Assembly: GCF_001186125.1 (NCBI RefSeq) | Contig: NW_014040525.1 | Span: 1 to 64,000, forward strand | Source of the DNA: Sphaeroforma arctica JP610 | Lineage: Eukaryota | Reading direction: 5' to 3' | DNA: 64,000 bases | Part shown: one piece after another, positions 6,379 through 45,321 of the stretch | How the letters are laid out: every line of letters begins with the position of its first letter | How positions within the stretch are numbered: the stretch's first letter is position 1 | Program-made: the position numbers and the translations under genes | The notes under the pieces: model-generated | The model's input: the letters and a program-made list of their open reading frames with translations, nothing else | Told to the model about the DNA's origin: nothing | Database searches by the model: none

Positions 6379-9300
6379 TATATATATGTACGTATATATG
6401 TTTGTGTGTATGTGTTTGTATTCAAAATCGCAGCCGCACAACTGACTCCTATCATTGCCATTTCAACAGGCGGGAATCCGTGGGTTATATCCCCCGATGA
6501 AAGGGCGACCATGGAGCGCACCTTTCAGAATATTGGTCCTTTGAATGGCAAGCTTTCGGGTATGTGAGAATTCAGGCCCTTTGTTTTGTTGTAGTCGAAC
6601 ATTGTGATGTTTATTTATTTGTGCCTGAACTGGACCATTTTGACACAAGGTTGAGCGCTTCAAATCCCTGTGTAAACACTTGTGTGTAGTTGTTGGCAGA
6701 CCAAACGGATAGTCCGCTCTAAGTATGCGTCTCATAACGCGGTCGATTTGCTCACTGGCTACAGCCAGTGTAGAACGTCAAATGGCGGGAACTCAAAAAA
6801 TCCGCAAACCTTAGTGTGTGATACAGTTTATGCAATAGTTCCTAGTGTTGCGTCGATCACTTCAGTTTCAAGCGCAAATACGTTTGATTGCTGCCCATAT
6901 AGCGGCATTTTATTAAACAACGCCTTCAAGATGCAGGCGCAAAGACCTTTGGTTCCGGCCTATGTAGCGGCATTTTATAAAAACTTCACCACATTCCAGC
7001 TATAAATGAGCTATGACTGCTTGTGCACTAAACTACCAGAAAGGTCCCGATAATCAATGTGCTTGTCAAGATACTTCCTTTCTACAAGCATACGTGCACA
7101 TCAACTGAGTGTCCCTCTCTGTCAGTGTGAAAAGAAACTTTATTTGCAACCCCTTAATCGATCTATTGTTGTATTGTCAACAATCTCTCAGGACCGATTG
7201 CGCGCACCTATTTTATGAAAACTGGACTGCCAAACCCCATTCTGGGACAGATCTGGCAGTTGTCCGATATGGACCACGACGGCAACCTGACACTCAATGA
7301 GTTCTGTGTGGCGATGCATTTGGTGAACAACAAATTGCAGAAGCGCATTGATCCTCCCTCGTCACTCCCGGATTCTCTCCGCAACGGCGGAGCAGGTATG
7401 AACGCACAGGACACTCAATAAGCTGGGGGTGTGCTTGATGTTGGTGTGTGTATGTACATTGTATTCTGATCAATGGCGAGCTATTACTTGGGGCATATTA
7501 TCATCCGTGTTATGTATGTAGGCTAGGGGCGTTTGGTCGGTGGAGTGCTGTTGAGTCGGCGACGACATGATTGGTGTTGGTGTGTGTATGTACATAGTAT
7601 TCTGATCAATGGCGAGCTATTACTTGAGGCATAGTANNNNNNNNNNNNNNNNNNNNGGCTAGGGGTGTTTAGGTACGGGAGTCGACATTGATTGGTGTTT
7701 GGTGTGTGTATGTACATAGTATTCTGATCAATGGCGAGAGGCATAGTATCATCCGTGTTATGTATGTAGGCTAGGGGTGTTTGGTCGGTGGAGTACTGTT
7801 GAGTCGGAGACACATGATTGGTGTTGGTGTGTGTATGTACATAGTATTCTGATCAATGGCGAGCTATTACTTGAGGCATAGTATTGTTGGTGCTATGTAT
7901 ATGGACTGGGGTGTTTGGTTGGTGGTGGGTAATTGATTCGGAGCTCCTTAGCTACACCCCCTAGGAGCATCTGCGCTGCTGACATTAATATGTGGCTCGC
8001 TACCCACTCATGTTAGCAGTGGCAATCTGTGTACAGCTACGTTTGCATACATAAGCGCACACAACCTGTAACCTCATTGCCTCTCCGCCATTAATTGACC
8101 TATTCCTACGGTGCTGTGGTGTTGTATGGGCCGGCTTCATCGCAACAGGTGCCAATGGCATGACATCGCCGAGCCCGATGATGAGTGGTGGCATGGGGGG
8201 CATGGGTGGTGGTATGAATGCTATGGGAGGAGGCATGAATAATATGGGGGGTGGTATGAGTAATTACGGGGGGGGTATGAATATCATGGGCGGTGGCATG
8301 CAGGGGGGCATGGGCATGGGTGGCGGCTATGGACAGGTACGTGTGTGTATAAATGTGCGCGCAACCAAGTTATGTAGACGTCGGTCTGTATTTATATTTG
8401 ATGTTTGTGTTGCTGGGGGTGTAATTGCTGGCATCAATTATGCCGCCAACGATATGCCTTTGTACTTCATTTCTGGCTTTCTACGCTCACATGCCGTGGC
8501 CTCATCCAAATCGCTCCAAACCTAATATGACGCCGAAGGCCGATACTTTATGTTTTCTTTGTGTGCTTTCTTTGCCCGAAATCCAATACTCGAGTAACAA
8601 TCCCGTTTTCCATAGCATTCCGCTGACCGATTCGAATCACATTTCCAATCCCATCCTAATCAAACTCATTCGGAAGCCACCATCTTCTCCTTCTGTCCCA
8701 ACAGGGAGGCATGGGGGGTATGGGTGGGGGCTACGGAGGTAGCGCAGGCATGGGAATGGAGTCCTCGGGTTTCGGCGGTGCAGGGGGTATGGGGGGAGGC
8801 TACACCGGCTCCTCGTACCAGGCACCGAAGAGTTCTGGGGGTGGGGGTGGGTCTCTCAAACCTATCGAGCACAAGATGCGGCTGAAGTACAACCAGGAGT
8901 TCAACAAGGCGGATGCCAAAAAAGTGGGCTATGTGACGGGGGTGCAGGCCAGGCAGATCTTCACGCGCGAGGCAAGGTTACCGGCCCAACAACTGGCACA
9001 GGTAAGCGTGAAGTGGAGATCACGGTAGAGTACAAGCTTGTTTGGTAAGTTGTGCGTGATCGTGACCATGACAAACTGGTACAAGGAAGCGTTTAGTGGA
9101 GAACATGGTACAGTATGAGCTTGTGTGGTATGTTGTGCGTGATCGTGATCGTGACCGTGACTGTGGCCATGTCTAGATCAGGATGCTATCTATCCGATAT
9201 TGTCATATGCATCTGTTTTGGATTTTTGGCTTCTGAACCAATTTTAGTATGTTTTTGATTCGTCTCCGATTCACCCCTAGTAATAATGTTGGCATTGATT

Positions 9301-10435
9301 CGGTTGCACCGACTGGTCGTGGTCCCAATATCGCCCATTTAATTTCCATTCTGACCCTCTAATGGCCCTCTATCGACCCTCTAGATCTGGAACTTGGCCG
9401 ATAAAGATCAGGATGGAAATCTGAACCGCGAGGAGTTTGCCATCGCCAAGCATCTGATGGCCGCTGTGGCTGAGGGCAAAAGTCTGCCGTCTAAGCTACC
9501 ACCGTTTCTGGGGGGCAAGAGTGTGCTTGACACGACCGGGAAAGACGGGCAGGTGGATGAGCGCATATCCAACTTCAAGCAGGTGTGCGAGTTTACTCTG
9601 AAGGATACATGTTAGTTGTGTCAGAGATTGCGTGAGTGTGTTGCGTTGTCCAAGTTGTCCTTGGCTCTGGGTTCGCGATGCGCTTGGTGCGTACGACCGG
9701 GAAGGATGATGTATAGTACCAAAGGTTGGTGTCACTTTATGTTGTGTATGGATTTATTGTGCAAATTGGTTGTTCTGTTCTGTGTTGGGTTACATGGGTT
9801 CTGGCCCATGTAGTATAAGAATATCCCCGTGAGTGACCTCTTCCGTTAGAAGTTCGGGCTCAGAGATATTCAAGATGGGTGTACGACGTGTTTCTTGTTC
9901 TCACACCTCCATAGTACTTTTTCGCATCCCGGGAAGTATTGTACTGGGGCTGCACTGTTTTTTTTGTTTTGTTTTTTGCAATATCTTCTCGGTCACTCTC
10001 GCGCAAATCACTAGATGTGTTTGTATATTGACTTGTACCCAAGCCAGGAGTCGTAGTTCATCGGCAATCGCAAATCCAAGATGCAGAATCCAGGCGGATT
10101 TTCGCATAATGTTACGATTGGAGTGCATTCTTATTATTATTCCACAACCAAATCCATCTAAAAATATTTATGATACATACTCGTATCAATGTATGTGCAT
10201 GCGATTCTGTATCTGTACTTAGCTTAATCACTTCGAAATCATACTTCTTCTCGAGTAATTAAAGGTAGCTGTGACATCGGTGTAGCGGTGTTTGACGTTT
10301 CGTGCTAACTTGCCCTCGTATCTCAATCCAGGGCCAAGACCTGTTGAACAAGAAGAAAGTGCTGATGGCGGAACAAATGGAGATGGACAAACAGGTCAGT
10401 TTCCTTCCTGTGATATATATATATGTATATATATG

Positions 10436-10478
<43 letters not shown>

Positions 10479-10480
10479 TG

Positions 10481-10530
<50 letters not shown>

Positions 10531-10741
10531 TAGTATAGTATAGTATAGTAGTAGTAGTAGTAGTTAGTAGTTACGTTAATTAACGTACGTTAACGCGGTA
10601 ACGGTAAGGGTAGGGTACGGTTAGTANNNNNNNNNNNNNNNNNNNNGAACTAAGAGGTAGTAGACGTAACTAAGTACGTTAGTTACCGTTACCGTTCGTT
10701 GTGTATATATATATAGTATAGTATATATATATATATATATA

Positions 10742-10774
<33 letters not shown>

Positions 10775-10775
10775 G

Positions 10776-10829
<54 letters not shown>

Positions 10830-13139
10830 ATATATATATGTATGTATGTATGTATGTATTAAATTGCACTGGAGAGGGTGTGTGTAAACAAAAGACAGCG
10901 TAGATCTCCCACACGCAGAGGATGTGAGATGATTCAAACTCTCAACTCAATCAGTCTCTAATCTGATGTTCTCTTACTTCATGTGCGTCATTCTGGTTCG
11001 TATTGTATCAAATCCCGAACGTCTGTATAGTATTATCAGCAAAGAAATGACCCGGCTTGTTCCTGTTTCCTATAGGCTTTCTTACAGCGTGACATGGAAG
11101 AGAAGCGTAAGCGCGACGCCAAAATGGCCCAGCAAATGGCCCAGGAACAGGCCAAGCAGCAACACATGCTACAGCAACAGCAACAGCAGGCACAGTATAT
11201 GCAGCAGCAGCAAAAGGAGCGCGAGGCTCAGATGTACGCCGAACGGGCCGAACGAGTGAAACGTGAGAACATGGAGTTGGAGATGCGACGCGAGTTGTAT
11301 CTGGACAGAGAGCAAGCCCTTGCTGAGATGAATCAGGTATGTTTAAGAGATGGGGGGGGGGGGGTTCTGGCCACTTGAGAGTGTATGTAGGATTTCGCTT
11401 GTCTATAAGTATACACACATTGAATATGCGTATCTCACAGATTTAGTTTGGAGCGTGCGGGTTTGTCTCTGGTGCACCCCAAGCTGGCTGATCCAAGAGT
11501 CGTGTGTACGCATACCTAGAGAATTTGTCCAAATTATTACGAACACACCCGAATGTGTGACCCTCGCCCCTTAGACCACCATACAGAGGCGTGGCTCGTA
11601 TTCTCAACTTACCTCCGACTGCACCGCTCTCTGTCTTCACACCTCTCATACATTCCTCCCAATCCATGCATCAGTTGATGATGAAGAAAACGCAGCTGGA
11701 CTCGCAGTTGTCGATGGCAAACAATAAGAAGCAGCAGATGGAGCAGATGATCCAACGGTCTGTAGGGTTTTTGTCGTATCTGGATTGTTTAACATACACT
11801 GAGTTGGTGGGTGTGTATTGCTCTTGTAGCGTTTAGGCTACCCTCTTATATCTCGAGTCATATCGTGGTTTTTATATATCCACCATAGAGGGATATTGTG
11901 GGTGGAGCGGATAGTACAACAGTTCGTAGCGTTGTTGTCGTTGACGTTTAAGGTGTCATGCATACACTCCCTTGACAGTGTATGTATCGTATGTAATATC
12001 CTGTTTAAATTGCCTAGAACCTTGTATGTGTGTGTTCGGATAGCTGCACTGTGGTGTACATGCCGGATGCGTCCGATCTCCAGCCCAGCGGCAGGCTGTG
12101 TCTTATAAGCTACGGACAAATGAAGCGCCTGATCTCGCTCCCACGCTGAGATAACGCCCATGCGCATGTGCCGGTGTCCTTGGAATACATCTGAATGTAC
12201 TGACCATAGACCTGTCAGCTCGTGTACGTTCGTAGTCGAAGTTTGAGCAACTGGCTATAATATGAATGAATGTAAGTCGGTGATATGTAACGTATCGTAG
12301 CGGATCAGCGCTCCAACCTCAACCTAAGTGATACCTCTAGATATTGCTGGAAAAATGTTTTTTGTGTTCACTAAAATCACCTGGAAGGTGATAGTCTAGT
12401 TATGTTGCAGGTGCCAATAGCCACCTAGACCTCTAACCGAAGCAAAGCACGCCTTGCTGTCTTCGTCATATCTCACTGTGGACTTTCACCACCTTACATG
12501 AGATGTTAGTAGCCTTACAGTTCTTTGTAGTACACGGCCGTATACGGCTACCCTGGATATCGGGTGCGTCTCTGACCTATCAGCGCTATCTCCTCTGTGT
12601 TGCAGGGGACAGGCAGCCAAGCAACAGGCTATCGCCGAGAAACAACAGGTGCAGGCACAGATTCAGCAGCACATGACATCGTTCCAGCAGCTAGAGCAGC
12701 GTTACAACGCAGAGATGGCCAACCTCAAGACCAAGCAGGACGAGCGCAACGCTCTCTCGGCGCAGCTGATTCAGATCCACAAGTATGTGTGTCTTCTAAG
12801 CCTAGCAATGTGTGTGAGAGGGATGAGCGGTCAAAGCATGGACCCCCACACACACACGCACGCACACATGCGCATTGTTATCTCTTGGCGGGTTGTTCTC
12901 GTGGGCCCTTCAGTATCCTCAATCTACGCCGTTTCTACACACACGCGCGCAGCCAATCTGCGAAGGCACGGGGGGCTATTGAGGGGTCTAAAGGTAAGGT
13001 GGACTCGGTCGCACAGGATCTATTGCAGAGTATCAATGCACTGCAGCAGTCGTTGGACCGCAATCGCCTGGAGATCAGCAATCGGCGACTCGCATTGCAG
13101 AAACAACAGGTAGCGTATGCGATGAGACAACTGGTGTAG

Positions 13140-13188
<49 letters not shown>

Positions 13189-13189
13189 C

Positions 13190-13228
<39 letters not shown>

Positions 13229-27739: not shown

Positions 27740-27971
27740 CAAGGACATAGGTAAGTTACCCACTACGTATCGTCCAGATCGAAAAGACCGTAAGGACCCT
27801 ATCGATAATAGTAATTTAGCGTTATTGTCGAGATCTTTGAAAGGAATTTGGTCAAATTCAAGGACATAGGTAAGTTACCCACTACGTATCGTCCAGATCG
27901 AAAAGACCTTAAGGACCCTATCGATAAGAGTAACTTAGCGTTATTGTCGAGATCTTTGAAGGAATTTGGTC
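27740..27971 (+). repeat. Near-identical tandem duplication (~119 bp period)
   Basis: caaggacataggtaagttacccactacgtatcgtccagatcgaaaagacc...aaggaatttggtca at ~27740 and ~27859. Confidence 0.93.
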
Positions 27972-28861
27972 AGATCATGCTTACTGCAAACTTACGTCAG
28001 AACCGATGGTTCGAAGCTGCGCAACAGAGTTTTAAGCCATCATCTTATAAGTATAGTAATTTGGAGAAGGCCAAAGCTGCTGTAACAAAGCTGAAGACGT
28101 GAAAGGAGCAGAGCGAGATGATAGTCCATCTGTTTTCAACAGACCCCCGCCCGGAACTGTTGGTATTCATCATGGTACCACCGGACGAAGGAACACCAGT
28201 ATCCCATTACCTCTGGGAATTGGACATGTAAGATTCGGTCTAATAAAGGCGATGCCAATGCCTTAGAATAAATAAACGCGTAGATAAATTCTATATCGTG
28301 TAAATATCGATATAAATAAACGAAATGAGACGTTTAATAAAGTTAGGTTTGCCTCGTGAAAACAGCAATACTCTGAGGGATTGTGAGGCTGAGACATTGC
28401 CTATATATAATCCTCTCAGTACTGTTTCCGCCGAAGGGTTTTTATTTAGTGTTTCGTTGTCGCTCTATTCTGGGGGCGAATCCGAGAGACTCATAAAATC
28501 CTATCTTTAGAAAAAAGAAATAAAAATAAAAATACTCTTGACGTCTTTAGTTATTGTCTTAACCAATAACTTGCCACTATCAAGAATTACCGACTTGGCC
28601 TTCATCAGACTGGCACATCTGGTTGGCTTATCGGAGGATCAACTAGGTAACGTTAATAGTCCCTAGAAACCTATATTCGGTTGAGCCATCTCGCTACCGA
28701 AGTATTCAGATATAAATAAAATTGGAAAGTAAATAAAGCTCTATTAATAGAACTAGGCCAACTCTTTTATGTTTGGTATTTTACTGAGGCCTTTTAATGG
28801 CCTCATCCAAATATCTGATATGTTAAATGGAAAAGGTTTAATTAATAAAACCATTAAAACC

Positions 28862-29167
28862 CATTTTAGGAAATTTAAGTTCCTCGTGCTATTAAGAGCA
28901 CATTTAGGAAACTTAAGTTCCTCGTACTATTAAGAGTACATTTAGGAAACTTAAGTTCCTCTTGCTATTAAGAGCACATTTAGGAGACTTAAGTTCCTCG
29001 TACTATTAAGAGTACATTTAGGAGACTTAAGTTCCTAGTACTATTAAGAGTACATTTAGGAAACTTAAGTTCCTCTTGCTATTAAGAGCACATTTAAGAG
29101 ACTTAAGTTCCTCGTACTATTAAGAGTACATTTAGGAAACTTAAGTTCCTCGTACTATTAAGAGTAC
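28862..29167. repeat. 8 x 38-bp tandem array with two near-palindromes per unit
   Basis: Consensus CATTTAGGAAACTTAAGTTCCTCGTACTATTAAGAGTA, counted eight times. Confidence 0.96.
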
Positions 29168-29187
29168 GTTTATACATAAAGTCTAAT

Positions 29188-29910
29188 GTGGAGGCCCGGC
29201 TTATTATAGACACCCATATGTCACCTGCTCAAACATATGAAATGTCACCCGACAAGTTGAGCATGTGTGTGTTGTGGGTACAAACAATCTTTTGCTCGGC
29301 TTTTCACCGAGAAGACCAAGTGGTATTGTGCGCAGGCATGCATCAATCTTATCCAGACAAGGTACGCGAGATTTCAATTGAAAGACCAACCTATTGTATA
29401 ATGAAACTCGCCGACCTGACATGGACTGAACTTTATCCGAGAGCAGATCAGACGTTTTCAAAACGTCCGATATCTGTAGTGAAATTAACACAGCCAAGTA
29501 AGAAGGTTGTGCCCAACACGAATGGAGGACCAGGGAATGGTCGAGACTCACATACGGGAGCGGGAAACAATAAAGGAAACAAAGGTGGAGATATAAAGGT
29601 GGCCAGAAGAACAAGCATGTGCAAGGTACTGGTGGTCACAAGAACAATGTCAACACCCGTGGGACCTTGGGCAACAAATCCGCTCAGTCAACAGAGCCTC
29701 CTAAGCCAAAGTATATGGAGATCAAGGATTGTGCTGGGACGGATTGTAGCTGGCGCATGACCCAACATGAGCCGAATGGACGCTGGAATGGCAGGCACGC
29801 GGAGAATTGTAAACATTTTATCGCGAAGTGTGCTGTGTGCTGACTGCGCAGGGACTAGGGGCTACCACAAGCATATGTGTAAGGTGCAACCGAAGGTAGA
29901 AGTTAAGTGA
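29188..29910 (+). pseudogene. gag: gag-like region with Gly/Asn-rich linker and Cys/His knuckle
   Basis: Lies directly upstream of the protease. ORF fragments 29188-29760 and 29619-29843. CADCAGTRGYHKHMC (C-x2-C-x6-H-x3-C) at ~29835-29880. Confidence 0.6.
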
Positions 29911-29925
29911 CAATCTTACCGGATC

Positions 29926-30354
29926 TTGGCACTGAAACAAAAGGATGCACCGCAAGATGGACGTGTCATTCTAGATGCACGAGTTAATGGGCATGAAATA
30001 AAAGCATTGTTAAATCCGGGCTCGCAAATTTCATGTATGTCATCGAGATTCTGTGAGATAACTGATGTAACTCGTAAATCAGAACCTACTATGTTTAAAT
30101 TAGCTGACGAAAGAGAGATTGCGTGTCGTGACATGGCGGTAGATTTGAGGTTTATCCACACCGATCAACGGACAACAGCTACAAAGGCGGTCGTCTGTAA
30201 TACTTTGCCCGACTATGATTTGATAGTGGGGATGGGGGATCTGTTGTCATTAGGTATAACGATTACCGGTTTACCGACAAGCATTGACCCACAAAAGGAT
30301 CAATCAGATGATAATCTGTTGATGCCTGTATACAAGCCTTCTAAGACTGTGTGA
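29926..30354 (+). pseudogene. Retropepsin-like aspartic protease (catalytic Asp appears as Asn)
   Basis: VNGHEIKALLNPGSQISCMS (cf. ALLDSGS) and YDLIVGMGDL (cf. DxILGxD). Confidence 0.88.
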
Positions 30355-30619
30355 GAGAGGATACCTCAATTTACAGAAAATCTAAAGGATCTTATCTGTG
30401 AGAATAACAAGATCAGAATCACTGACTGTACTCAGTTCTAAAACTGTGAAAGTGATAGTAAGTCAATTTATAGGGAAGCTAAAGGATCTTATCTTTGACA
30501 ATAACAAGATCAGGATCACTGACTGGGTTCAGTTTAAATCCAACAACGGACTCGTGAGCTTAGACCTGACAAAGTAGACTCTTCGAAGTTGAAATGTCCG
30601 ACGCGTAACTACGTAGCAT

Positions 30620-31400
30620 GGCGTCATGAACAGGTAGTTAGAGAACAGGTTAAGGCCTGGTTAGAAGATGGAGTTATTGCGGTAAATTACTAACTGACTC
30701 CAGCCAATCTAGAACTCTTGGCAGTAGACCAGTTCAGCTCAGATGGTACGTTAAAGAAGTTTTGCGTGTGCCTAGATATGAGTCCTATAAACGCTCTTAT
30801 ACCTGCACACAACTTTCAACTACCAAGAATTAACGAATTGCTGAGAAGAATGGAAGGGGCGAAGATATTCTCGACCATAGATGGAAGTATTTTACCTTCA
30901 CTTGGGATGGACAGCAGTATTCCTTCAAGGGTGCACCATTTGGTTTACATTTTTTACCAGTCTTCCTTCAGCAGATCATGCAGGACCTGTTTAGAGACAT
31001 GGACAATGTACAGGTATATATCGACAATATAGTGGTATTTACTAAAACCAAAGAGAAGCATGATAGAGTTATGCGTGAGGTTTAGCTAGGCTAAACAAGC
31101 ATAAGTTCAAAATCAACCGCAAGAAATGCCAGTTTGGCGTAAACGGGATTCAGCTGTTGAGATACTGAGTTTCCGGGGATGGCATTATGATCGACAGCGG
31201 AAAGGTCGAACACTTGTTAGACTGGAGAACCCCCACTACACGCAAGGATGTCAATAGCATGTGTGGATTCGTCAAGTTCCTGTCAGGCGGAGTTCCTCAC
31301 TTAGCAAGTTACCTTAAACCCTTCGGACAAACCCTTCGGACATTTACGTTGTCACGAGGGTAAATTGGGGGCATTGTGGACCAAAAAATGGTGATGATGC
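30620..31400 (+). pseudogene. pol: Ty3/Gypsy reverse transcriptase (disrupted)
   Basis: EQVKAWLEDGVI, KFCVCLDMSPINA, FQLPRINELL, GAKIFSTID, FTWDGQQYSFKGAPFGL, VYIDNIVVF (YIDD read as YIDN), KINRKKCQFG, LLRY*VSGDGI. Confidence 0.93.
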
Positions 31401-31419
31401 CTTTAAGCAGCTCAAAACA

Positions 31420-31822
31420 GTGGTTCAGAAAGCTCAAATAGTCCAGCCACCGAAAGATGGGATACCGTTTATGGTGGCTACATACGCATCCGACATGGCG
31501 TTGGGAGCCGTGCTGTATCAAATGATAGAAGTAAAACCGAGATACGCGCAGTTCTTTAGCAGGGCTATGAATTCGTCACAAATCAACTACCCGACGGTGC
31601 AACAAGAGCTCCTGGCTGTTGTAACTACACTCACTCATTTCAAGGACTACTTATACGGTACACACTTCAATGTACTGTGCGATCAGAAATCGTTGCAACA
31701 TTTAAAAGACATGAAACCCAATTCTCAGTTGGTCAGTCGATGGCACGATACAATCGCGAAAATTTTATTCAGCATAACACATTCCGGGAATACACAATTA
31801 ATTACCGGATATGTTATTCCGC
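31420..31822 (+). pseudogene. Ty3/Gypsy RNase H (disrupted)
   Basis: PFMVATYASDMALGAVLYQ, FFSRAMNSSQINYPTVQQELLAVV, YLYGTHFNVLCDQKSL, and after a frameshift HIPGIHN*LPDMLFR. Confidence 0.93.
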
Positions 31823-31864
31823 TTCGTACCGGACTTCAACAAGATGGTTCGGGAGTTACTAGCT

Positions 31865-32268
31865 ATGGATTAGATGGTCAATTCTAGATGGTTTAAGATC
31901 GCAGACGACATATATGGTCCGCATACCATTGACATGTTTTCAGCTCACCATAATGCGCGACTGCCACGATACCGGACTTTAGAACATCCAGAGGGTGATG
32001 CGTTTCAAATCGACTTAACAGATGAAAACGCATGGGCGAATCCACCGTGGTTGTTGATACCACAGTTGCTTAATTATGTACATATACAAGATGCTACCAT
32101 CACGTTTTGGGTTGTCCCTTAAGACATTCATATAAATGAGTTCCGCAGTTGCTATCAATGATACAATGTGAGCCCATATATGTGGATAGAGAGGTATATA
32201 CTTTCCTCTACCAAGGTACCTGTGTAGTCCAGAAGACGCCTTGGCGACATACAATAATATGTTGAATA
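31865..32268 (+). pseudogene. Dam-like DNA N6-adenine methyltransferase domain (DIRS-MT/phage-Dam type) embedded in pol
   Basis: MD*MVNSRWFKIADDIYGPHTIDMFSAHHNARLPRY...DAFQIDLTDENAWANPPWLLIPQLL...ITFWVVP, then in a shifted frame *VPQLLSM...KTPWRHTII. SAM-binding-like DMFS at 31931-31942 and catalytic NPPW at 32039-32050. Confidence 0.85.
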
Positions 32269-32808
32269 GATCCAGTTGGCATATCCAAATGGACACAATC
32301 CGAGATCTTCAAACGAAAGGTTGAAGAATCCAAGATGCCACTCTTGACACCTAAGTCTCAACATGAGGCTAGGACGACACATGCACCTGCAGCATGCGTC
32401 ACCGAGGTACAATCTGATCCTACAGAATCAACGAGGTACTCATCACTAGCGAAAGCATTCTACAGGAAGATATGTTCTGACAGAGCAACTACATACGAAG
32501 CCAAGACATGGTTACTCAAAGTTGATGACCGATTTTCCAGATGTATACGACCACGTAACTCAACTAGTGGACAAGGCGAATTCACAAGGTAGATCTTTCA
32601 TGCGAGATGGGACCAGACGAGTCATCAAGTCCAAGTGATGAAGCAGTGAAATCCTTTGACACAGCAAGTTCATCGGAGGAAGCTATTCTGAAGTGGCTAA
32701 GGCAGAATTCTGTGTTCAAACACATGGATAAGGTTAGGACTGAGAAACATTGCAAAAGGTACGTGATTGTACTTCTAAAATCTTAAGCGATATATAACTC
32801 AGGTTTAT

Positions 32809-33865
32809 CACGAATGCAACGACTGCGAAATTAACCGGATCAAGCGCTACGGATATGCTCCGTTGCGAAGCGTATCAGAAGATGAGCCGTGGTGCAGGGT
32901 TATCATTGACTTGGTTGAGCTACCCTCGTCCGAACACACGAAGGATAAGTATGTCTGTCACGTGTTTGATGTTGCTTCAAGATAAAACATATTATATCCT
33001 CTGAAAGATAAATCAACACAAACTGTGGCTGAATCTTGGCTGGCCAGTTATTGTATGTTCCGACAATGGTAGTGAGTTTATAGGGGATGCCATGACGACA
33101 CAGTTACTCGTTGCGGGATCATGCCATAAGATGGGCGTACCTTATAAGCCTCAGACACTAGATGCGAATGAGGTACGTCATAGAAAGATGAAGAGGTTCA
33201 TGCGTGGAGCATTGCTAGACGACGCTGACACGTGACCTTACTCAATCAACTGGGTACAGACACAAATGAACGAGACACCTGATTCAGTAATTGGTACAAC
33301 ACCCGCTCACTATTTCAAGGACCGTTATAGTGAATTACAAGTACTTTTCAACAAGAATTCTCAAGAAGATCATGTGTTACCATGGTTAGAGACGATGCGT
33401 CGTACCAGAGACGTCGTCTTTCCTTGTTTGAGAAAAATGAAGGATATCGCACTCAAGAAAAGACAGAAGCGATGAAATGACTCAAAGAAGACAGTCGAGT
33501 TTGAGGTAGGCGATATAGTCATCATCATGGCTCACAATTCCGACACAACTGTGCTTACGGCTAAATACATTGGACCATTCAAGATTTCAGTGCCCTTGAA
33601 GAAGAGCGGAACTTACGAGGTGAACAATGATGACGATTCAGGCGCTCTTAATATCGGATCACATCGCATTCCGATGATATAAATCATCCTTCGCCGCGCA
33701 CGTGAAGCTACTACACCTCATATCTTACGAAATTAAGAAGATTCTGTGGAAGTACAAGCATGAGGACATGACATGCTACACAACGGAGTTTGCAGATGGC
33801 GCACAATACGATCCACCTTCATCAGTATTTGATGATCCAGACGCATTGAAGGCTTTTAATAAGAC
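32809..33865 (+). pseudogene. DDE integrase with CxxC, DD(35)E core, GPF region and chromodomain-like C-terminus
   Basis: ECNDC...GYAPLRS...PWCRVIIDLVELP...YVCHVFDVASR...PLKDKS. SDNGSEF (D at 33062) to PYKPQTLDANE (E at 33170) has 35 intervening residues. Then IGTTPAHYF, EFEVGDIV...KYIGPFKI and YEIKKIL...FDDPDALKAF. Confidence 0.92.
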
Positions 33866-34773
33866 GTTTTGCAAACGTTGATGCGGAGGCTATCGTACCT
33901 ACAAACAAACGTTCTGATGTAGTCAAGATATATTTGCAGACATCATTCATTCTAAGGTTCAAAGACCATGGAATGTACATACCCCCAAAAGGCACTAAGA
34001 AACGTCCCATCCACCATCGGGGACCACAAGGACCTAAACCCAAACGTAATAGAGCAACCGTGTATCTTATAAAGTCTAAGTAAACTTTGTCTACGAGAAT
34101 ATAATATAAGCATTGAGGCCAATATATGATCGAAACCCGTTTCTTCCTTTAGCTTGTACAATTCATGTTAGCTTTTCGAGTATGTATGCTTCAAAACACA
34201 TATAAGCCAACATATGAATTTTAAAGCTGAGGAAGGGGGGGGAGGGGGGGAGGGGCTGTGTAAAATCAGCGGGTTCCTATAGTAGAAGCACATGATAAAA
34301 GTATATTATAAACGTACTAACGTTTAAGCGTTGAAACGCAATTGTAGATATTTGTGACTGCAAAACAATCAAATAATCTAGATTTAGATATATTGAAATG
34401 CAGAAAACAAACAAACAAACAAATAATCTGTTATTAGATATTTGTAATTGCATACAACAGAGGTCGGAGGCTCTGTTGATATTGATATTGTGGCTTTTCT
34501 ATAACGATATGTTTTCCACCAGAGAATATTGGGATATAATACTTAGGAGTCTCAGGTGAAATTGACACTTGATGACACATGTTATATTTCCGAATTCTCT
34601 CAGCGCGAGATAACCCACTGAGAAATGGGGCATGAAAATGACCCCCCCTAGCCAGCTGACTAGATGTGCCCGCCTATGCCTTCAATGGAATGGAGAGTTA
34701 GGTACCATGTGATGGGGCATAGGTGCAGACATTTAACTGTACCAACATTGTGTTTTTGATTTATTTTTAATTT

Positions 34774-35120
34774 TCTTAAGTTGGACTTAGAGTTATTTTA
34801 TTAGCAATTGCGATTGGAGAACTGCTTCAAAGCATTAAATGATAGGGGAAGGAAATATCTTGCATCCAATGCAATAAAATCTGATCTTAGATACTGATAC
34901 CAAATAAATCTAGTCTAGAGTGAAGTAGTGAGTAATTAGAGTGGAACTATATAGACAATAGTCTCAGTCTTAAATCCCCTAATATTTAGCTCATTGCCGA
35001 CGGCTGACGCTGAACTTAAATTACATTGTGTAAATTTACTTCTATATCATATATTCTTTTATGTTACGTTAACTTATTGGTATCGATAGCCAGCCTGGTT
35101 AGTCTGACTTATACATTATT
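34774..35120 (+). repeat. Copy 2 of the dispersed direct repeat (uninterrupted)
   Basis: tcttaagttggacttagagttatt...ccaaataaatctag...aacttaaattacattgtg...cttattggtatcgatagccagcctggttagt. Confidence 0.85.
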
Positions 35121-35128
35121 GGGATGCC

Positions 35129-37740
35129 TTGAATCGAATGTTTGCAGAAACATATTCCACGATACCGGAAATCAATCAGCATGAATTGACTAAGTGTGCG
35201 ACGTACCTGAAGGAGTTGCACGGCAAGTATGATGGGGCTGCCGGGTTCTCGAACTTTCCCAAACGAGGCTCGTCTTATTTAACTTTACTCTCAAATATAA
35301 GTACTCTGCGATGGCCGGTATCAAATGCTGTGACACACAGTGATCTCCCAACAGTGCATGTTGACGAGCAGTTGTTACTATTCCAGGACTGTGACGTTCG
35401 TGCCCGCAAGCATGCTGGGGAAGTGAAGGGTGGTACAAGAGACACCCCAATTATCAACTTCAAGCTGAAGCTCATCGATGCTAAAAGGCAGAGAACGAAA
35501 GTATGCGTGGTGTTTCCCAGAGTATTATTGGGCGACCAGTATTTTATGTTGCTGCTATGAATATGATACTTGAAAACTCAGCAGACCATCGGATGGTTTT
35601 ACGCCTGGCTGCATCGTCCAGTGAAAGTCTTCCTTGGCGTCCATGTTCGCATCTCTCTTCAGGATGAGTAGTAAGACATTTGAGTTCCGAGATGGATCAG
35701 TCACGCATGTTAATTGAGGAATTCAAGAAAGCGAAGGCTGATTGGATGATGTTGAAAGGGTTGTATGATGCACGAGGTCAAGCGAATATGATGGAAAAGA
35801 ACGGTGTGTAGACCGAGTTACAATTGCGTCACCAAGAATGTGGATCAATTCAAATTTTACGTTCGATGAGATGTCGACAGTTTTGACCGTGGATACACTA
35901 TGGAAACCAATCAAGAAGCGTTTGGTATCACTGATGTTTCGGGGTGGCACGAGGATGACGATGACAAGGTACTTGTGCAGTCGCTTGCACAAGATATTAT
36001 AAGTTCAGTCCCTATTGTGGTTATCCACGTTTTACAACACTTGGTAATGGGCAACAGACTTAAGATTGTGCAGGACCTCCGTACATATGGGCACTTCAAT
36101 ATGAGACTGGACATTTGTTGCACAAAGGAAGAGTACGTTAATCATATTATGGAATTGTCGCATACGTTGTTGACAACATGCGTTCATCCCCACACTGTAT
36201 TTAAACACCAAGCTGGTCTTCAGTTCCGCGGTATTCAAGTCAATGAATTATCATTTGATACAGGAAGGATATGTATACAGGAATTTGGAGTTTGCGTGTG
36301 AGATGGGGAAGGTGTCTGTGTCTCATGGCGAGACCCTCGTACAAAAGTGGTCTAATGGGATGCAACAAATGAATCCACGACTTTTACATTCAATGCCAAT
36401 TCCCGAAATCCCGGCAGATGACGACGATGCGCTCATGAAACACGAGGCACGTTTCCGTACTCATCACCCAAGTGCAACTGACTACAATGTGCTATTGAAC
36501 CACGAATTGCGTTCATTTCTCATGGCCCCTAAAAAAATGAATATAAACTGTGGTGATATGTAAATTGATTCTATTTTTTTTAAATCATGTGTAGAATACA
36601 TGTATCGGAAATATTTAGTTCAGCAGTTAAATCTTCAGGGTCCGATTTACTTGCAATTGAGTTTCGGTCGAAAGCCGATACGCCTACCGAGTATGCTCCA
36701 AGACTGACCGATGGCACTGATATAGTATCGCACTATCATTTGCTCCCATCAAAATCCTTCAACAGTGACATATTGGGCTTTCCATCTTGGATGACATAAA
36801 AAGGGAACCAAAAATTGTTTGTCGAGTACAGAACTATCGCTATGTCATCGAGCTCCAGAAGTACCACAGAGCATTCCACTTTCGCGATGCCACCACGTAT
36901 CTGGCACACCTGTACTCGAGACCAGACTTATCGTCTTGTGAACCGATTCTGCCACATGTCCTTGTCCGCGAATACTCTGATTTGGATATGCGTGGGAATA
37001 TGACAGAAATGGTGCTAGTTTATTATTTAAATTTGGATGTACAGTACCAAATAGGTACTTACGTCTGTATACTGGAACAAAAGCGAGAATCATCAAGACG
37101 TTACTACGTTGACTGCTTCTAGGCCAGGGTATAACAGTTTCAGTTTTCTTATTATTTACCAAAGACACGTATTTTCGGCCATGACAGAACTGGCGGAAAA
37201 CGTGACTGACCTCAAAACATCTGGCACAAAGTGACGTCGAATGAGTAAGCGACATGGTTGACTGGTCGATGTATGGACGCAATCAGCTGTTACGTGCACC
37301 ATATGTTGTTGTGAAAGTAGCGACGCGCGATGTGGACAGCGAGCGTACGTACATTAACGTTGATGGGTCGGTGCTGAAGATATAATACGGTGGGGAATTT
37401 TCATGGTCAATGTCCACCACGACGGCCACACATGTGTCTGTAACTTGCAGTCCGACTACAGATGTCGATCCAGTTTATGCAGCGAAATCGGTCTCACTTG
37501 GACCTAAGCCTAGTGAGAAACATTTGGAAACATCACAAACCTGTCTCGAGGACCTAACGAGGCTGGTGATATCGAACCAATTGTCATCAGACAAATTTGA
37601 CGTCCAGGAGGCATCGATCAGAACATGTTTCTGTTTTGGTCGATGCAAAGTCAAAGACATCCATAACAAGGTCTGATTTCCAGTAGAGACGGCTCGGGAA
37701 TATTTCAAGCTCGCCGGACTTGTGAAGTTCATTTTCGGCT
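35129..37740 (+). pseudogene. Degenerate protein-coding-like tract of unknown family
   Basis: Series of same-strand ORF fragments (35129-35560, 35900-36301, 36243-36563, 36587-36799, 36787-37122) with protein-like composition and no microsatellite-rich introns. No motif recognised. Confidence 0.4.
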
Positions 37741-37959
37741 ATGAGCATGGGTGGACCATTTTCACTACTTATGTATCACGTTCAGATTACTAAAATGGGA
37801 ACGCAGACAGAGTTTAAGAGTCGTACCGTTCACAATATGATGACATGCCATATCAATAACAACGACATCCTAGTACACAATATGATGATGAGAAAATTGA
37901 ATGTCGCTAGACTTAGGAAGAAGGGCATTTTAAGTTCCAGAATAATATGTTACTTTATC

Positions 37960-38488
37960 GTTACTTGTACGATATTAACCTGAAAATAAACTATCAAACT
38001 TGAATATCGGATTGTCATTTAGTGTCATACACGTCTGACGTAAAGGATGCATGATTAATGAAATATATTGTTACAAATATTTTCAATGCATTCACACACC
38101 ATCATCGACGATAGAAATAAATTGTAACTCAGCACAAATGATTATGGTTATGAAAGTGATGATTTTCGTTACATTCTCGATGATGACGGCTGGAATTGTT
38201 TCGTACTTTCAGCGGTTTAGTATTCGTTACTTGTACGATGCTATCCTGAAAATAAACTTTTAAACTTAGAATATCGGATTGTCGTTTAGTGTCATACACG
38301 TCTGACGTAAAGGATGCATGTTTAATGAAATATATTGTTACAAACATATTCAATGCATTCACGCACCATCATCGATGATAGAAATAAATTGTTACTCAGC
38401 ACAAATGATTATGGCTATGAAAGTAATAATTTTTGTTACATTCTCGAATATGACGGCTGGTATTGTTTTGTACTATCAGCGATTTAGA
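37960..38488. repeat. Tandem duplication, ~266 bp period
   Basis: cgttacttgtacgat...cctgaaaataaact...tcatacacgtctgacgtaaaggatgcatg...gacggctgg at ~37960 and ~38226. Confidence 0.93.
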
Positions 38489-42717: not shown

Positions 42718-45321
42718 TTATGTGTGGGATGCCTCCACGGAGTTGTACACCATAGCACCCATCGTCCAATCCATGTCCGTGCTGGCGAGCTTGCTCAAGA
42801 AGTGAATCTTTCTATCCGGGGACAAGTTAAGGCCCTGGAATACCACGATTAAAGGTATCAGAAATTTGAACGACAAGTGTTGTGTATACGATAGTTAAAT
42901 AGTATAAACCGTGCCCACGAGTCTCAATATTGAGAAGCTCAATTTGGAAACAGCCATTGCAGAATTGTACTACATACCAGTACCGTGTTCAAAATACTTC
43001 CCCAGGATATTCTATCCTCTAAACTGAAATGCTGTTCTTAATTGTTCCCTATTCATATTTTGAGCAAAGAGTATCATCTCGTATGTAGTACATCTCTCCA
43101 CGACAGTAGTCCGGCACGTGTAGCGAAGCTCACACAAAAAAAGACTACATGTTCCAGGTGCATTCTCCGAGTGAGATAAAACAACATTACTGGCACGGTG
43201 GCGTGTAGCAACCTCCTAGGTATAGCAGATGAGCCTGTGATGTAAATGCATGTGCACCAAAAACGATGGAATATAAACTATGCCTATTTTGTAAATATGC
43301 ATGTATCCTACGCCAAATAACACAGACAAAGTATAGTACATGTTAAACACACCTCAACTAAAAGCGTAGATACATATGCGGCTGAAAAGCAAGCCTCTCT
43401 GGCAGTAGCCTCATCAACAGGATGGGTGCCGTTGCTGGCTTGCCACTTCTTAGCTTCCTCCTGAGATTGTACGCGAGTCAATGGAAGGTGACGATTAAAA
43501 TCAACTTACTTGAACCGCACGGTGTCACACAATGTCACGCACTATTCACATAAGTTTGCAGGGGTATGTGCGTGGCTGTGTCAGTACGACTAAGTAAGTC
43601 CAGTAGGAATGTGGTTAATCACAACATGGACACATCGTTCCTTTGAGCGAAAGAAAAGAGCAAATGATCATCCCATTTATGCATCGAACACGACAAACTT
43701 GGAAATCAGGAAACCGCAAATCTCGTCCGCATATGTGAAGTCAAAGCATAAAATCATCTACAGGTGCGACCCTCAAGGTTGGTAACATATATAACCGTAC
43801 GAATACATTTTGTGGGAGAATGAATATTCTATACAACAACGGGAATTCACTAACCAAAATAACTAGGACAGTAATATACATCGGTAACACCGAGACATTC
43901 ATACATCCACGCCTGATATCGATACAATAAGACCTTACCCATGATAGGGAATTGCAAATAGGAGCAGCCTTCTCATCTAGACAGGAAATGGGGTTCAGTC
44001 CATCACAACCCATGGTCTCCGCCGCACGGTAGAAATTGTCCATGGCGTAAAGGTCTATATCAGCTGGGACCTTCGGCTGTGTCAGATAAGTAAAGAGTGT
44101 TAGTTCACGGGCTGCATGTGTGTTGTAGTACAAGACTGTCAACAACAGCCAAGAAGATACGTGCTTATCATGTATTGTATTGATCATGGTGGCGTAAAGG
44201 TCTACTATATCAGCTGAAGTCTCCGGCTGTATCAGATAAGGAATGAGTTGCATGTGTATCGTAGTACTAGACTGTCAAGAACAGCCAAGTAGGTACGTGC
44301 CTATCATGTATTGTATTGATTATGGTGGTATAAAGGTCTACTAAATCAGTCGGGGTCTCCGGCTGTGTCAGATAAAAAAAGAGCTGCATGTGTGTCGTAG
44401 TGCAAGACTGCCAAGAATAGCCAAGAATATACGTGCTTAGCATGAATTGTTTTGACCATGGTGGCGTAAAGGTCTACTATATCAGCTGAAGTCTCCGGCT
44501 ATGTCAGATAAGGGAAGAGTGTCAGCTCACGTACTGAACGTGTATCGTGGGATACGGCTGTCATGATCAGTCAAGATTATATGCGTTCATCTTGTATTGA
44601 ATTGATCATGGCCGCGGAAAGGCCTATGTCAGCAGGGGTCACCCGCCGTGTCAGCTATGTAAATAGTGTAATTTTACGTACGTTATGTGTACCGTACTAT
44701 GAGGCTGACATTAACAGACAAGTAAATCCTACTACGCGCTTATCGGGATACACGTTGATTAACTTGTCCTGACAAATAATATATTGTAACTAATTCACGT
44801 GCGCATTCGTGTTATATTGGCAGGATATTATGCCTGGAGCAGCCAACCTGAAATGGTCGATTCAAATTGCACTGATACGTACAATTCCTAAACGGACAAC
44901 ATGTTGGCGAGTGTGCGCTTTTCGACCTTGTCTATGCTTTTAGATTTAAGTCACAAAATGCATGGGAATATAAAGCTGAGAATGAATTCAAGAATATTCG
45001 TTCTAGAGGAAGAAGTTTATAGATGTATACGTATACACACTTATGTATATACAAAGTGCACACGCATTCGGCGCTGATTGATGGAACATATCTGTGCCAA
45101 TTACAAGCGATCGCGAGCAACCTCGAGCGACGTCGAGTCAAACATCTACACCAAGTCAATTACACTCGGTCGACTGTATACACAAACACAAGACACAGAT
45201 ACCAAAGCGTATCTAGTGGCGCAAGGATGTACGACCGCATACAAAAGCACCCCACAGACTCACACAGGTATACATATTTGTATATACCCATACTCGCTCA
45301 CACACACACACGCACACACAA

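Follow-up and report, generated by a model that had tools for sequence, protein, structure and literature searches.

The stretch of DNA analysed here (the window) comprises positions 1 to 64,000 of contig NW_014040525.1 of the Sphaeroforma arctica JP610 genome assembly (GCF_001186125.1). With a probability of about 95%, its plus strand contains a dead long terminal repeat (LTR) retrotransposon of the Ty3/Gypsy type with an N6-adenine methyltransferase (MT) domain built into Pol, i.e. a DAM-LTR. This class was named in May 2026 by Fernandez-Moreno and co-workers, who claimed its first identification (bioRxiv 10.64898/2026.05.21.726589, hereafter the preprint). The decayed element is ordered protease (PR), reverse transcriptase (RT), RNase H (RH), MT, integrase (IN), GPF module, tail and polypurine tract. 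The order PR-RT-RH-IN, as required of Ty3/Gypsy Pol, is present, and the MT sits between RH and IN. The features of the element are listed below; P0002 and P0005 are two intact relatives.

26437..29910, plus strand: broken gag-like region, split by two nested insertions, with a Cys/His knuckle-like motif at its end, adjoining PR
29974..30234, plus strand: aspartic protease (Pfam gag-asp_proteas, E 0.0069; collinear with P0005); catalytic Asp substituted
30598..31327, plus strand: reverse transcriptase of Ty3/Gypsy type (RVT_1 E 2.7e-7, tblastn with P0002, RT tree); frameshifted, YxDD broken
31393..31822, plus strand: RNase H (RT_RNaseH E 1.3e-23, RT_RNaseH_2 E 2.5e-23); frame switch by the C-terminal HIPG motif
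31868..32277, plus strand: N6-adenine methyltransferase domain (Pfam Dam, own profile, fold model); DxF motif and NPPW retained, interrupted by stops and a frame switch near 32105
32280..32700, plus strand: poorly conserved MT-IN linker (33% identity between P0002 and P0005)
32700..33680, plus strand: DDE integrase with zinc-finger part, D-D(35)-E core and GPF module (rve E 0.0038)
33717..33878, plus strand: degenerate chromodomain-like tail lacking the cage Trp (profile, fold and Atlas comparisons, weaker for the window copy by itself)
34229-34255, plus strand: polypurine tract, read from the sequence; the TG at 34257 is the likely start of the 3' LTR
34774..35120, plus strand: flank repeat, 72% identical to 25546-25835, plus 26382-26411

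The zinc-finger CxxC of the integrase lies at 32815-32826, its core residues D, D and E, read from the sequence with D-35-E spacing, at 32908, 33062 and 33170, and its GPF motif at about 33572; identity to P0002 is 45-66% in alignment segments. The DD(35)E integrase, the GPF motif and the purine tract that an earlier reading of the sequence (the original prediction) had placed on this strand were all recovered there. A six-frame Pfam scan covered positions 25500-36001, in which the three minus frames gave no match and a tyrosine recombinase (Phage_integrase) was not found in any frame. The gag-like region had no Pfam match and is presumed to be gag from its position alone; its reading frame continues past the target-site duplications of both insertions. 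No matching LTR pair, primer-binding site or outer target-site duplication was resolved around the element: positions 34257-34773 had no upstream match, the LTR search gave just the partial 72% flank repeat, and the window has no tRNA gene against which a primer-binding site could be compared. This flank repeat is possibly what remains of an old LTR pair.

That the MT is a part of Pol is indicated by the intact relatives. A search for longer proteins with the MT piece yielded three out of 54 candidates, one of them P0002 (1376 aa, 66% identity) and the other two DIRS-like; a second search yielded two out of 169, adding P0005 (1400 aa, 69% identical to P0002). P0002 is a single open reading frame (ORF) with the Pfam domains RVT_1, RH, Dam, H2C2 and rve, and P0005 is a single ORF with PR, RT, RH, Dam and rve (rve E 5.9e-9). 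Both combine a Dam domain with an LTR-type RT and an integrase in one ORF, and both can be aligned collinearly to the window, beginning at PR and reaching through the tail. Because the two proteins show the same order, the MT is built into Pol and is not a nested DIRS piece. Intact RH-MT-IN ORFs, which the original prediction had proposed to look for together with paired LTRs, are thereby provided from other contigs, whereas no LTR pair was resolved. Among ten top relatives whose origin was checked, three (P0006, P0009 and P0010) are EukProt entries of Abeoforma whisleri; they are the nearest named relatives.

When the intact P0002 and P0005 were mapped onto the window, frame switches were located at about 31777, at about 32105 (within the MT), more than once in 32350-32780, at about 33030 and at about 33717. 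The first of these lies directly 5' of the CAC at 31778 from which the original prediction had started its single frame. That frame indeed reads HIPGIHN*LPDMLFR...HTIDMFSAHHNARLPRY...DAF...ENAWANPPW, but the statement that only point stops interrupt it proved wrong; it contains 26 stops in 696 codons, and the "VVP" reported at its end is out-of-frame text because of the switch at about 32105. The integrality of the MT, for which the point stops had been used as the argument, holds nonetheless through the intact relatives. In PR, RT and RH, acidic residues needed for catalysis have been replaced, and with the stops and frameshifts these changes bear out the description of a dead copy in which NPPW is retained.

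An alternative is that the arrangement arose by nesting or misassembly, with a DIRS fragment inside a plain Gypsy element or two elements adjoining each other. The element does hold two other nested insertions, and no listed contig spans the whole stretch; however, the same order occurs in intact ORFs of other contigs, P0002 and P0005 share 88% identity in the RH-MT link, the RT is of Gypsy type and stands apart from 26 DIRS-like rows, and Phage_integrase had no match in the scanned region. This alternative is rejected at the family level by P0002 and P0005, and we consider it extremely improbable. In four runs, contigs cover all 30 bins of 25000-36500, with no listed piece spanning the element, and none of the 15 contig joints compared, out of 55, skips the MT. 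The stretch is contained, whole or in part, in 20 of the 24 public sequencing runs listed (at least half of its words in 15; eight studies), and no RNA run is among the listed runs that contain it.

The Gypsy identity given in the original prediction is supported by the RT tree, a quick tree of 92 of the 184 extracted rows whose references are search matches and not GyDB or Repbase entries. The window falls on the Gypsy side, split from the 26 DIRS-like rows at a Shimodaira-Hasegawa-like approximate likelihood ratio test (SH-aLRT) value of 100. It lies in a 12-row clade (99) that includes Abeoforma P0010 and in which all 12 rows carry MT and integrase. This clade is nested in a group of 48 rows (95), of which 29 lack the MT, many of these bearing a chromodomain, and seven others have MT plus integrase; MT-bearing and MT-less rows interleave. 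The MT tree (83 of 157 rows, 142 columns) is weakly resolved overall, with 8 of 80 branches starred; it joins the window to P0002 and P0005 (99) and then to the Abeoforma rows (90), and a DIRS-like group of 50 rows (87) stands apart from them. The kin found in the two trees agree. From this kinship alone, with Abeoforma in the RT clade (99) and the MT group (90) as the only named ichthyosporean rows compared, the window element most likely belongs to the ichthyosporean DAM-LTR lineage, and the same kinship points to an ichthyosporean host. In an approximately unbiased (AU) test, the MTs of 29 RH-MT-IN rows were compatible with one clade as against 30 DIRS-like rows (p-AU 0.61); P0180 (long branch), P0248, P0050, P0070 and members of near-duplicate clusters were left out. 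This value allows a single capture of the MT without demonstrating it.

Metagenomic elements with the RH-MT-IN layout were also observed (P0019, P0036, P0037, P0045, P0051, P0179, P0180, P0186 and P0194). They mostly have a canonical chromodomain and, where an RT is present, are scattered in the RT tree among elements that lack the MT. Two other metagenomic proteins of 2.1-2.4 thousand residues, P0050 and P0070, read (protease)-EEP endonuclease-Dam-RT-RH-integrase zinc finger; their RT forms a very long branch, and they resemble the odd Euglena elements of the preprint.

The MT domain was recognised by Pfam Dam (PF05869), the profile with which the original prediction had suggested checking it, at E 2.6e-5 and 24.4 bits for a 164-residue piece and at E 0.0018 in the long frame; the former value falls slightly short of the 1e-5 used in the Dam screen of the preprint. 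A profile made from homologues matched the window MT at E 4.6e-34. With the MT as query, HMMER recovered 1881 proteins at E 0.001 or better, and an integrase lies downstream of the MT in 17 among the best 150 of these. Between P0002 and P0005, identity is 67% (91/136) in the MT, 62% in RT, 72% in RH and 58% in the integrase core. The MT is thus conserved at the RT and RH level, with the MT-IN linker at 33%, as expected for a domain under selection. The catalytic motif in 20 clade rows is NPPW in 17, NPPF in two and CPPW in one, and the DxFA motif is retained.

The fold of the domain was modelled on the P0002 MT (61-row alignment, 167 residues, predicted local distance difference test (pLDDT) 91). 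In Foldseek, PCIF1/CAPAM accounts for all three matches at E 0.001 or better (best E 1.7e-4), and PCIF1 is also the top match in VIA (Z 10.5, root-mean-square deviation (rmsd) 3.1, 133 aligned), followed by DIMT1, ErmE and KsgA (Z 8.5-8.9); E. coli Dam reaches Z 8.3 (rmsd 3.7, 113 aligned) and T4 Dam Z 8.1. The model has a methyltransferase fold with PCIF1 as the closest among solved structures, although a common fold does not establish function. An excerpt of Iyer et al. 2016 (PMC4738411) puts the DIRS MTases in the PCIF1 clade, and PCIF1 is absent from the main text of the preprint. A PCIF1-like fold would point to RNA, hybrid or single-stranded substrates. Accordingly worded, the "DNA methyltransferase" of the original prediction stands as a DIRS-type N6-adenine MT, whereas "DNA" was overstated, PCIF1 being the closest fold, an assay in E. 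coli negative and the DIRS MTases judged likely inactive by Iyer et al. (see below).

Pfam Chromo had no match at E 0.01 in P0002, P0005, P0010 or the window tail. The tails were therefore scored, each against 500 shuffles, with a profile built on 49 chromodomains of elements that lack the MT. Each of the other 11 tails of the lineage outscored 499 or all 500 of its shuffles (34.3 bits for Abeoforma P0010, with no shuffle as high; 7.4 bits for P0009). The window tail reached 6.0 bits (four of 500 shuffles as high) and that of P0005 6.4 bits (six of 500), and the P0002 tail, at 0.7 bits, was matched or beaten by 137 of 500. In profile-profile comparisons with HHalign, all 14 tails matched chromodomains at 98.6%, and the three family tails (window, P0002 and P0005) at 34.9% (E 4e-4, 0 of 100 column shuffles). 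A chromo profile of five sequences did not score P0002, P0005 or P0012, and a phmmer search of PDB sequences with this P0002 tail gave nothing relevant. The model of the P0002 tail consists of three strands followed by a C-terminal helix (pLDDT 84); its alignment includes one canonical chromodomain row among 13, a possible source of bias. The rows listed by Foldseek for this model are nearly all chromo or chromoshadow domains, at E 0.02 or worse, and the top match in VIA is a chromodomain with a middling Z of 7.5 (rmsd 2.2, 57 aligned). Atlas assigned Chromo 0.91 to the P0002 tail; for the window tail phage proteins rank first, and Chromo (0.87) is at rank 18.

According to an excerpt of PMC3350952, the aromatic cage of chromodomains consists of Y24, W45 and Y48. 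W45 is replaced by Phe in all three family rows and is Trp in the ten other rows, and the Y48 loop is absent in every row except P0019. These alignments suggest that the lineage carries a cryptic chromodomain, more decayed in the family of the window, P0002 and P0005, whose tail is unlikely to read methyl-lysine; we predict this tail to be left over from a chromovirus ancestry. A canonical methyl-lysine-reading chromodomain was rejected, as the cage is not kept. Hence the chromodomain-like tail of the original prediction is upheld across the lineage and is weak in the window copy taken singly, while "chromatin-reading" said too much. The preprint describes the ichthyosporean DAM-LTR lineage, found in Pirum, Abeoforma and Sphaeroforma, as lacking chromodomains, which we take as a threshold effect because Pfam Chromo misses the tails at E 0.01. 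No report of the cryptic chromodomain of this lineage was found in the main text of the preprint or in a narrow literature search.

In the Gypsy life cycle, Gag-Pol makes a particle, RT together with RH turns the RNA into complementary DNA (cDNA), and the integrase inserts the latter. Pol would be packaged with the RNA of the element, as in general Gypsy biology, and since the MT is in the same ORF as RT, it would travel with RT. In active copies, the MT may methylate adenines on the element's own reverse-transcription intermediates. The likeness of the fold to PCIF1 and the negative outcome in E. coli both point to an RNA:DNA hybrid or single-stranded cDNA as the probable substrate, and not to bulk double-stranded DNA (dsDNA). 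After integration, the host AMT1 would, to judge from the preprint, keep N6-methyladenine (6mA) at ApT, and the maintained mark would keep new insertions transcribed, so that they escape silencing. Taken as a whole, the proposal that the MT methylates hybrid or single-stranded intermediates of its own element and that the host maintains the mark seems to us evenly poised, yet more probable than any one of the other accounts given below. The preprint proposes a model of this kind, in which RNA-DNA intermediates are methylated and AMT1 maintains the mark, and reports that in A. whisleri and S. arctica the insertions of DAM-LTRs carry more 6mA and are more highly expressed.

It is important to mention the points that weigh against this interpretation. 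An MT is present in just nine of the 120 listed RT-RH relatives, and therefore close Gypsy kin manage without it. The Pfam Dam score is below the cut-off in the window (24.4 vs 28.1 bits), in P0002 and in P0005, and P0005, an otherwise intact ORF, carries CPPW. Many RNA and DNA amino-methylases follow PCIF1 at Z 8-9 in VIA. The MT profile had five matches among PDB sequences, all at E 0.23 or worse and none a methyltransferase, so the link to PCIF1 is at the level of the fold alone. The 6mA enrichment on DAM-LTRs in the preprint is a correlation, and expression of a DAM-LTR Dam in dam-minus E. coli gave no gain of 6mA; a preference for the substrates named above could explain this negative assay, if the modelled fold is a guide. 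Iyer et al. 2016 regard the DIRS1 MTases as likely inactive, in the excerpt of PMC4738411, and neither there nor in the preprint is an element-borne Dam with demonstrated activity described.

Other accounts of the domain have been weighed with the same evidence. The MT may be a PCIF1-like RNA methyltransferase that places N6-methyladenosine (m6A) or cap-adjacent N6,2'-O-dimethyladenosine (m6Am) on its own transcript, stabilising it or hiding it from RNA surveillance, and 6mA on DNA copies would then be secondary to transcription and host AMT1. PCIF1 prefers RNA as substrate, it is the top fold match in both Foldseek and VIA, weak Pfam PCIF1_WW matches occur in relatives (e.g. P0018, E 5.3e-4), and the clade assignment in the excerpt of Iyer et al. 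agrees; but the 167-residue model spans just the catalytic core of the PCIF1 chain of about 480 residues (TM-score by target 0.22), the best Pfam family is phage Dam, and the tree of the preprint derives the domain from prokaryotic Dam, so that we regard this account as doubtful. We similarly give little credence to a wider scenario in which a PCIF1-type adenosine methylase acts in the particle on RNA or an RNA:DNA hybrid after a single capture in a chromovirus-like Gypsy clade, the cryptic chromodomain being kept and the MT lost many times.

A catalytically inert MT, retained as a nucleic-acid-binding or scaffold module beside RT-RH, would fit the judgement in the excerpt of Iyer et al., the E. 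coli result and the CPPW of P0005. It is unlikely in our view, given NPP[W/F] in 19 of 20 clade rows (NPPW in the window), the retained DxFA and DAM-LTR copies that are richer in 6mA than other LTRs (bioRxiv 10.64898/2026.05.21.726589). The original prediction had a Dam-like dsDNA methylase acting on the finished cDNA or the insertion site, to which the Pfam family, the Z scores of E. coli and T4 Dam (8.3 and 8.1) and the 6mA enrichment on insertions lend some support; it appears improbable, since E. coli dsDNA gained no 6mA and, according to the preprint, part of the target-recognition region of Dam is missing in the DAM-LTR domain.

The idea of self-marking by 6mA in the original prediction coincides with the model of the preprint, where the RH-MT-IN layout is also already catalogued. 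An unreported architecture is accordingly rejected: architecture and mechanism are in print, and the element is another member of the DAM-LTR class, whose family with P0002 and P0005 may itself be listed in the supplement of the preprint. The element shares with the ichthyosporean DAM-LTRs the Ty3/Gypsy RT, the DIRS-related Dam in Pol, the DDE integrase and the NPP motif, and differs from their description in its tail, which, like those of Abeoforma, matches chromodomains below the Pfam cut-off. The DAM-chromovirus-like clade of Chlorophyta in the same preprint also combines Gypsy, Dam and chromodomain in one element, but it is green-algal and its chromodomain is recognisable, whereas that of the window is degenerate; in the RT tree the window groups with Abeoforma and metagenomic elements, apart from plant and chlorophyte rows. 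DIRS1-type elements likewise have a homologous MT immediately after RH (P0003, P0004 and most of the 150 best matches); unlike them, the window element has a protease, a Gypsy RT, a DDE integrase and a polypurine tract, and a tyrosine recombinase was not found in the scanned region. As for PCIF1/CAPAM, the cap-specific adenosine N6-methyltransferase, it is the closest solved fold and shares a clade with the DIRS MTases in the excerpt of Iyer et al., but identity is 13-15%, only the catalytic core is represented and no match was found at the sequence level.

Two insertions, both of high summed contig depth (which is not a copy number), are nested in the gag-like region:

27025..27479, plus strand: nested insertion of 455 nt, TG...CA, with a 5-nt target-site duplication ATGAC; solo-LTR-like, of another family
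28227..29208, plus strand: nested insertion of 982 nt, TG...TA, with a 4-nt target-site duplication GACA; solo-LTR-like, with about eight 38-nt tandem units (family D17)

Behind the flank repeat, 35108-36563 (plus strand) holds several fragments of broken ORFs, each 129-150 aa long; their depth is that of the background, and Pfam had no match up to 36001. Upstream of the element, a triosephosphate isomerase exon (Pfam TIM, E 1.2e-65) lies at 782-1387 on the minus strand, and exon-like ORFs with microsatellite-rich introns occupy about 8000-23300 on the plus strand; they presumably encode a protein with EH-domain, coiled-coil and SH3 parts (resembling intersectin or Pan1). Repeats were also observed as an 11-nt tandem array at 25094-25277, a 264-nt direct duplication at 37958-38487 and a tandem array of roughly 140-nt units at 44043-44722.

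Since the copy in the window is dead and its class has been in print since May 2026, it adds little by itself. Modest additions to the description of DAM-LTRs come from the cryptic chromodomain and the PCIF1-like fold; the former corrects the preprint with regard to the ichthyosporean-related lineage, and the latter speaks for trying the domain, known from DIRS elements, on RNA, hybrid and single-stranded substrates. Two intact natural ORFs, P0002 with NPPW and P0005 with CPPW, are available as test material for a class of transposons that possibly write their own "active" chromatin mark.

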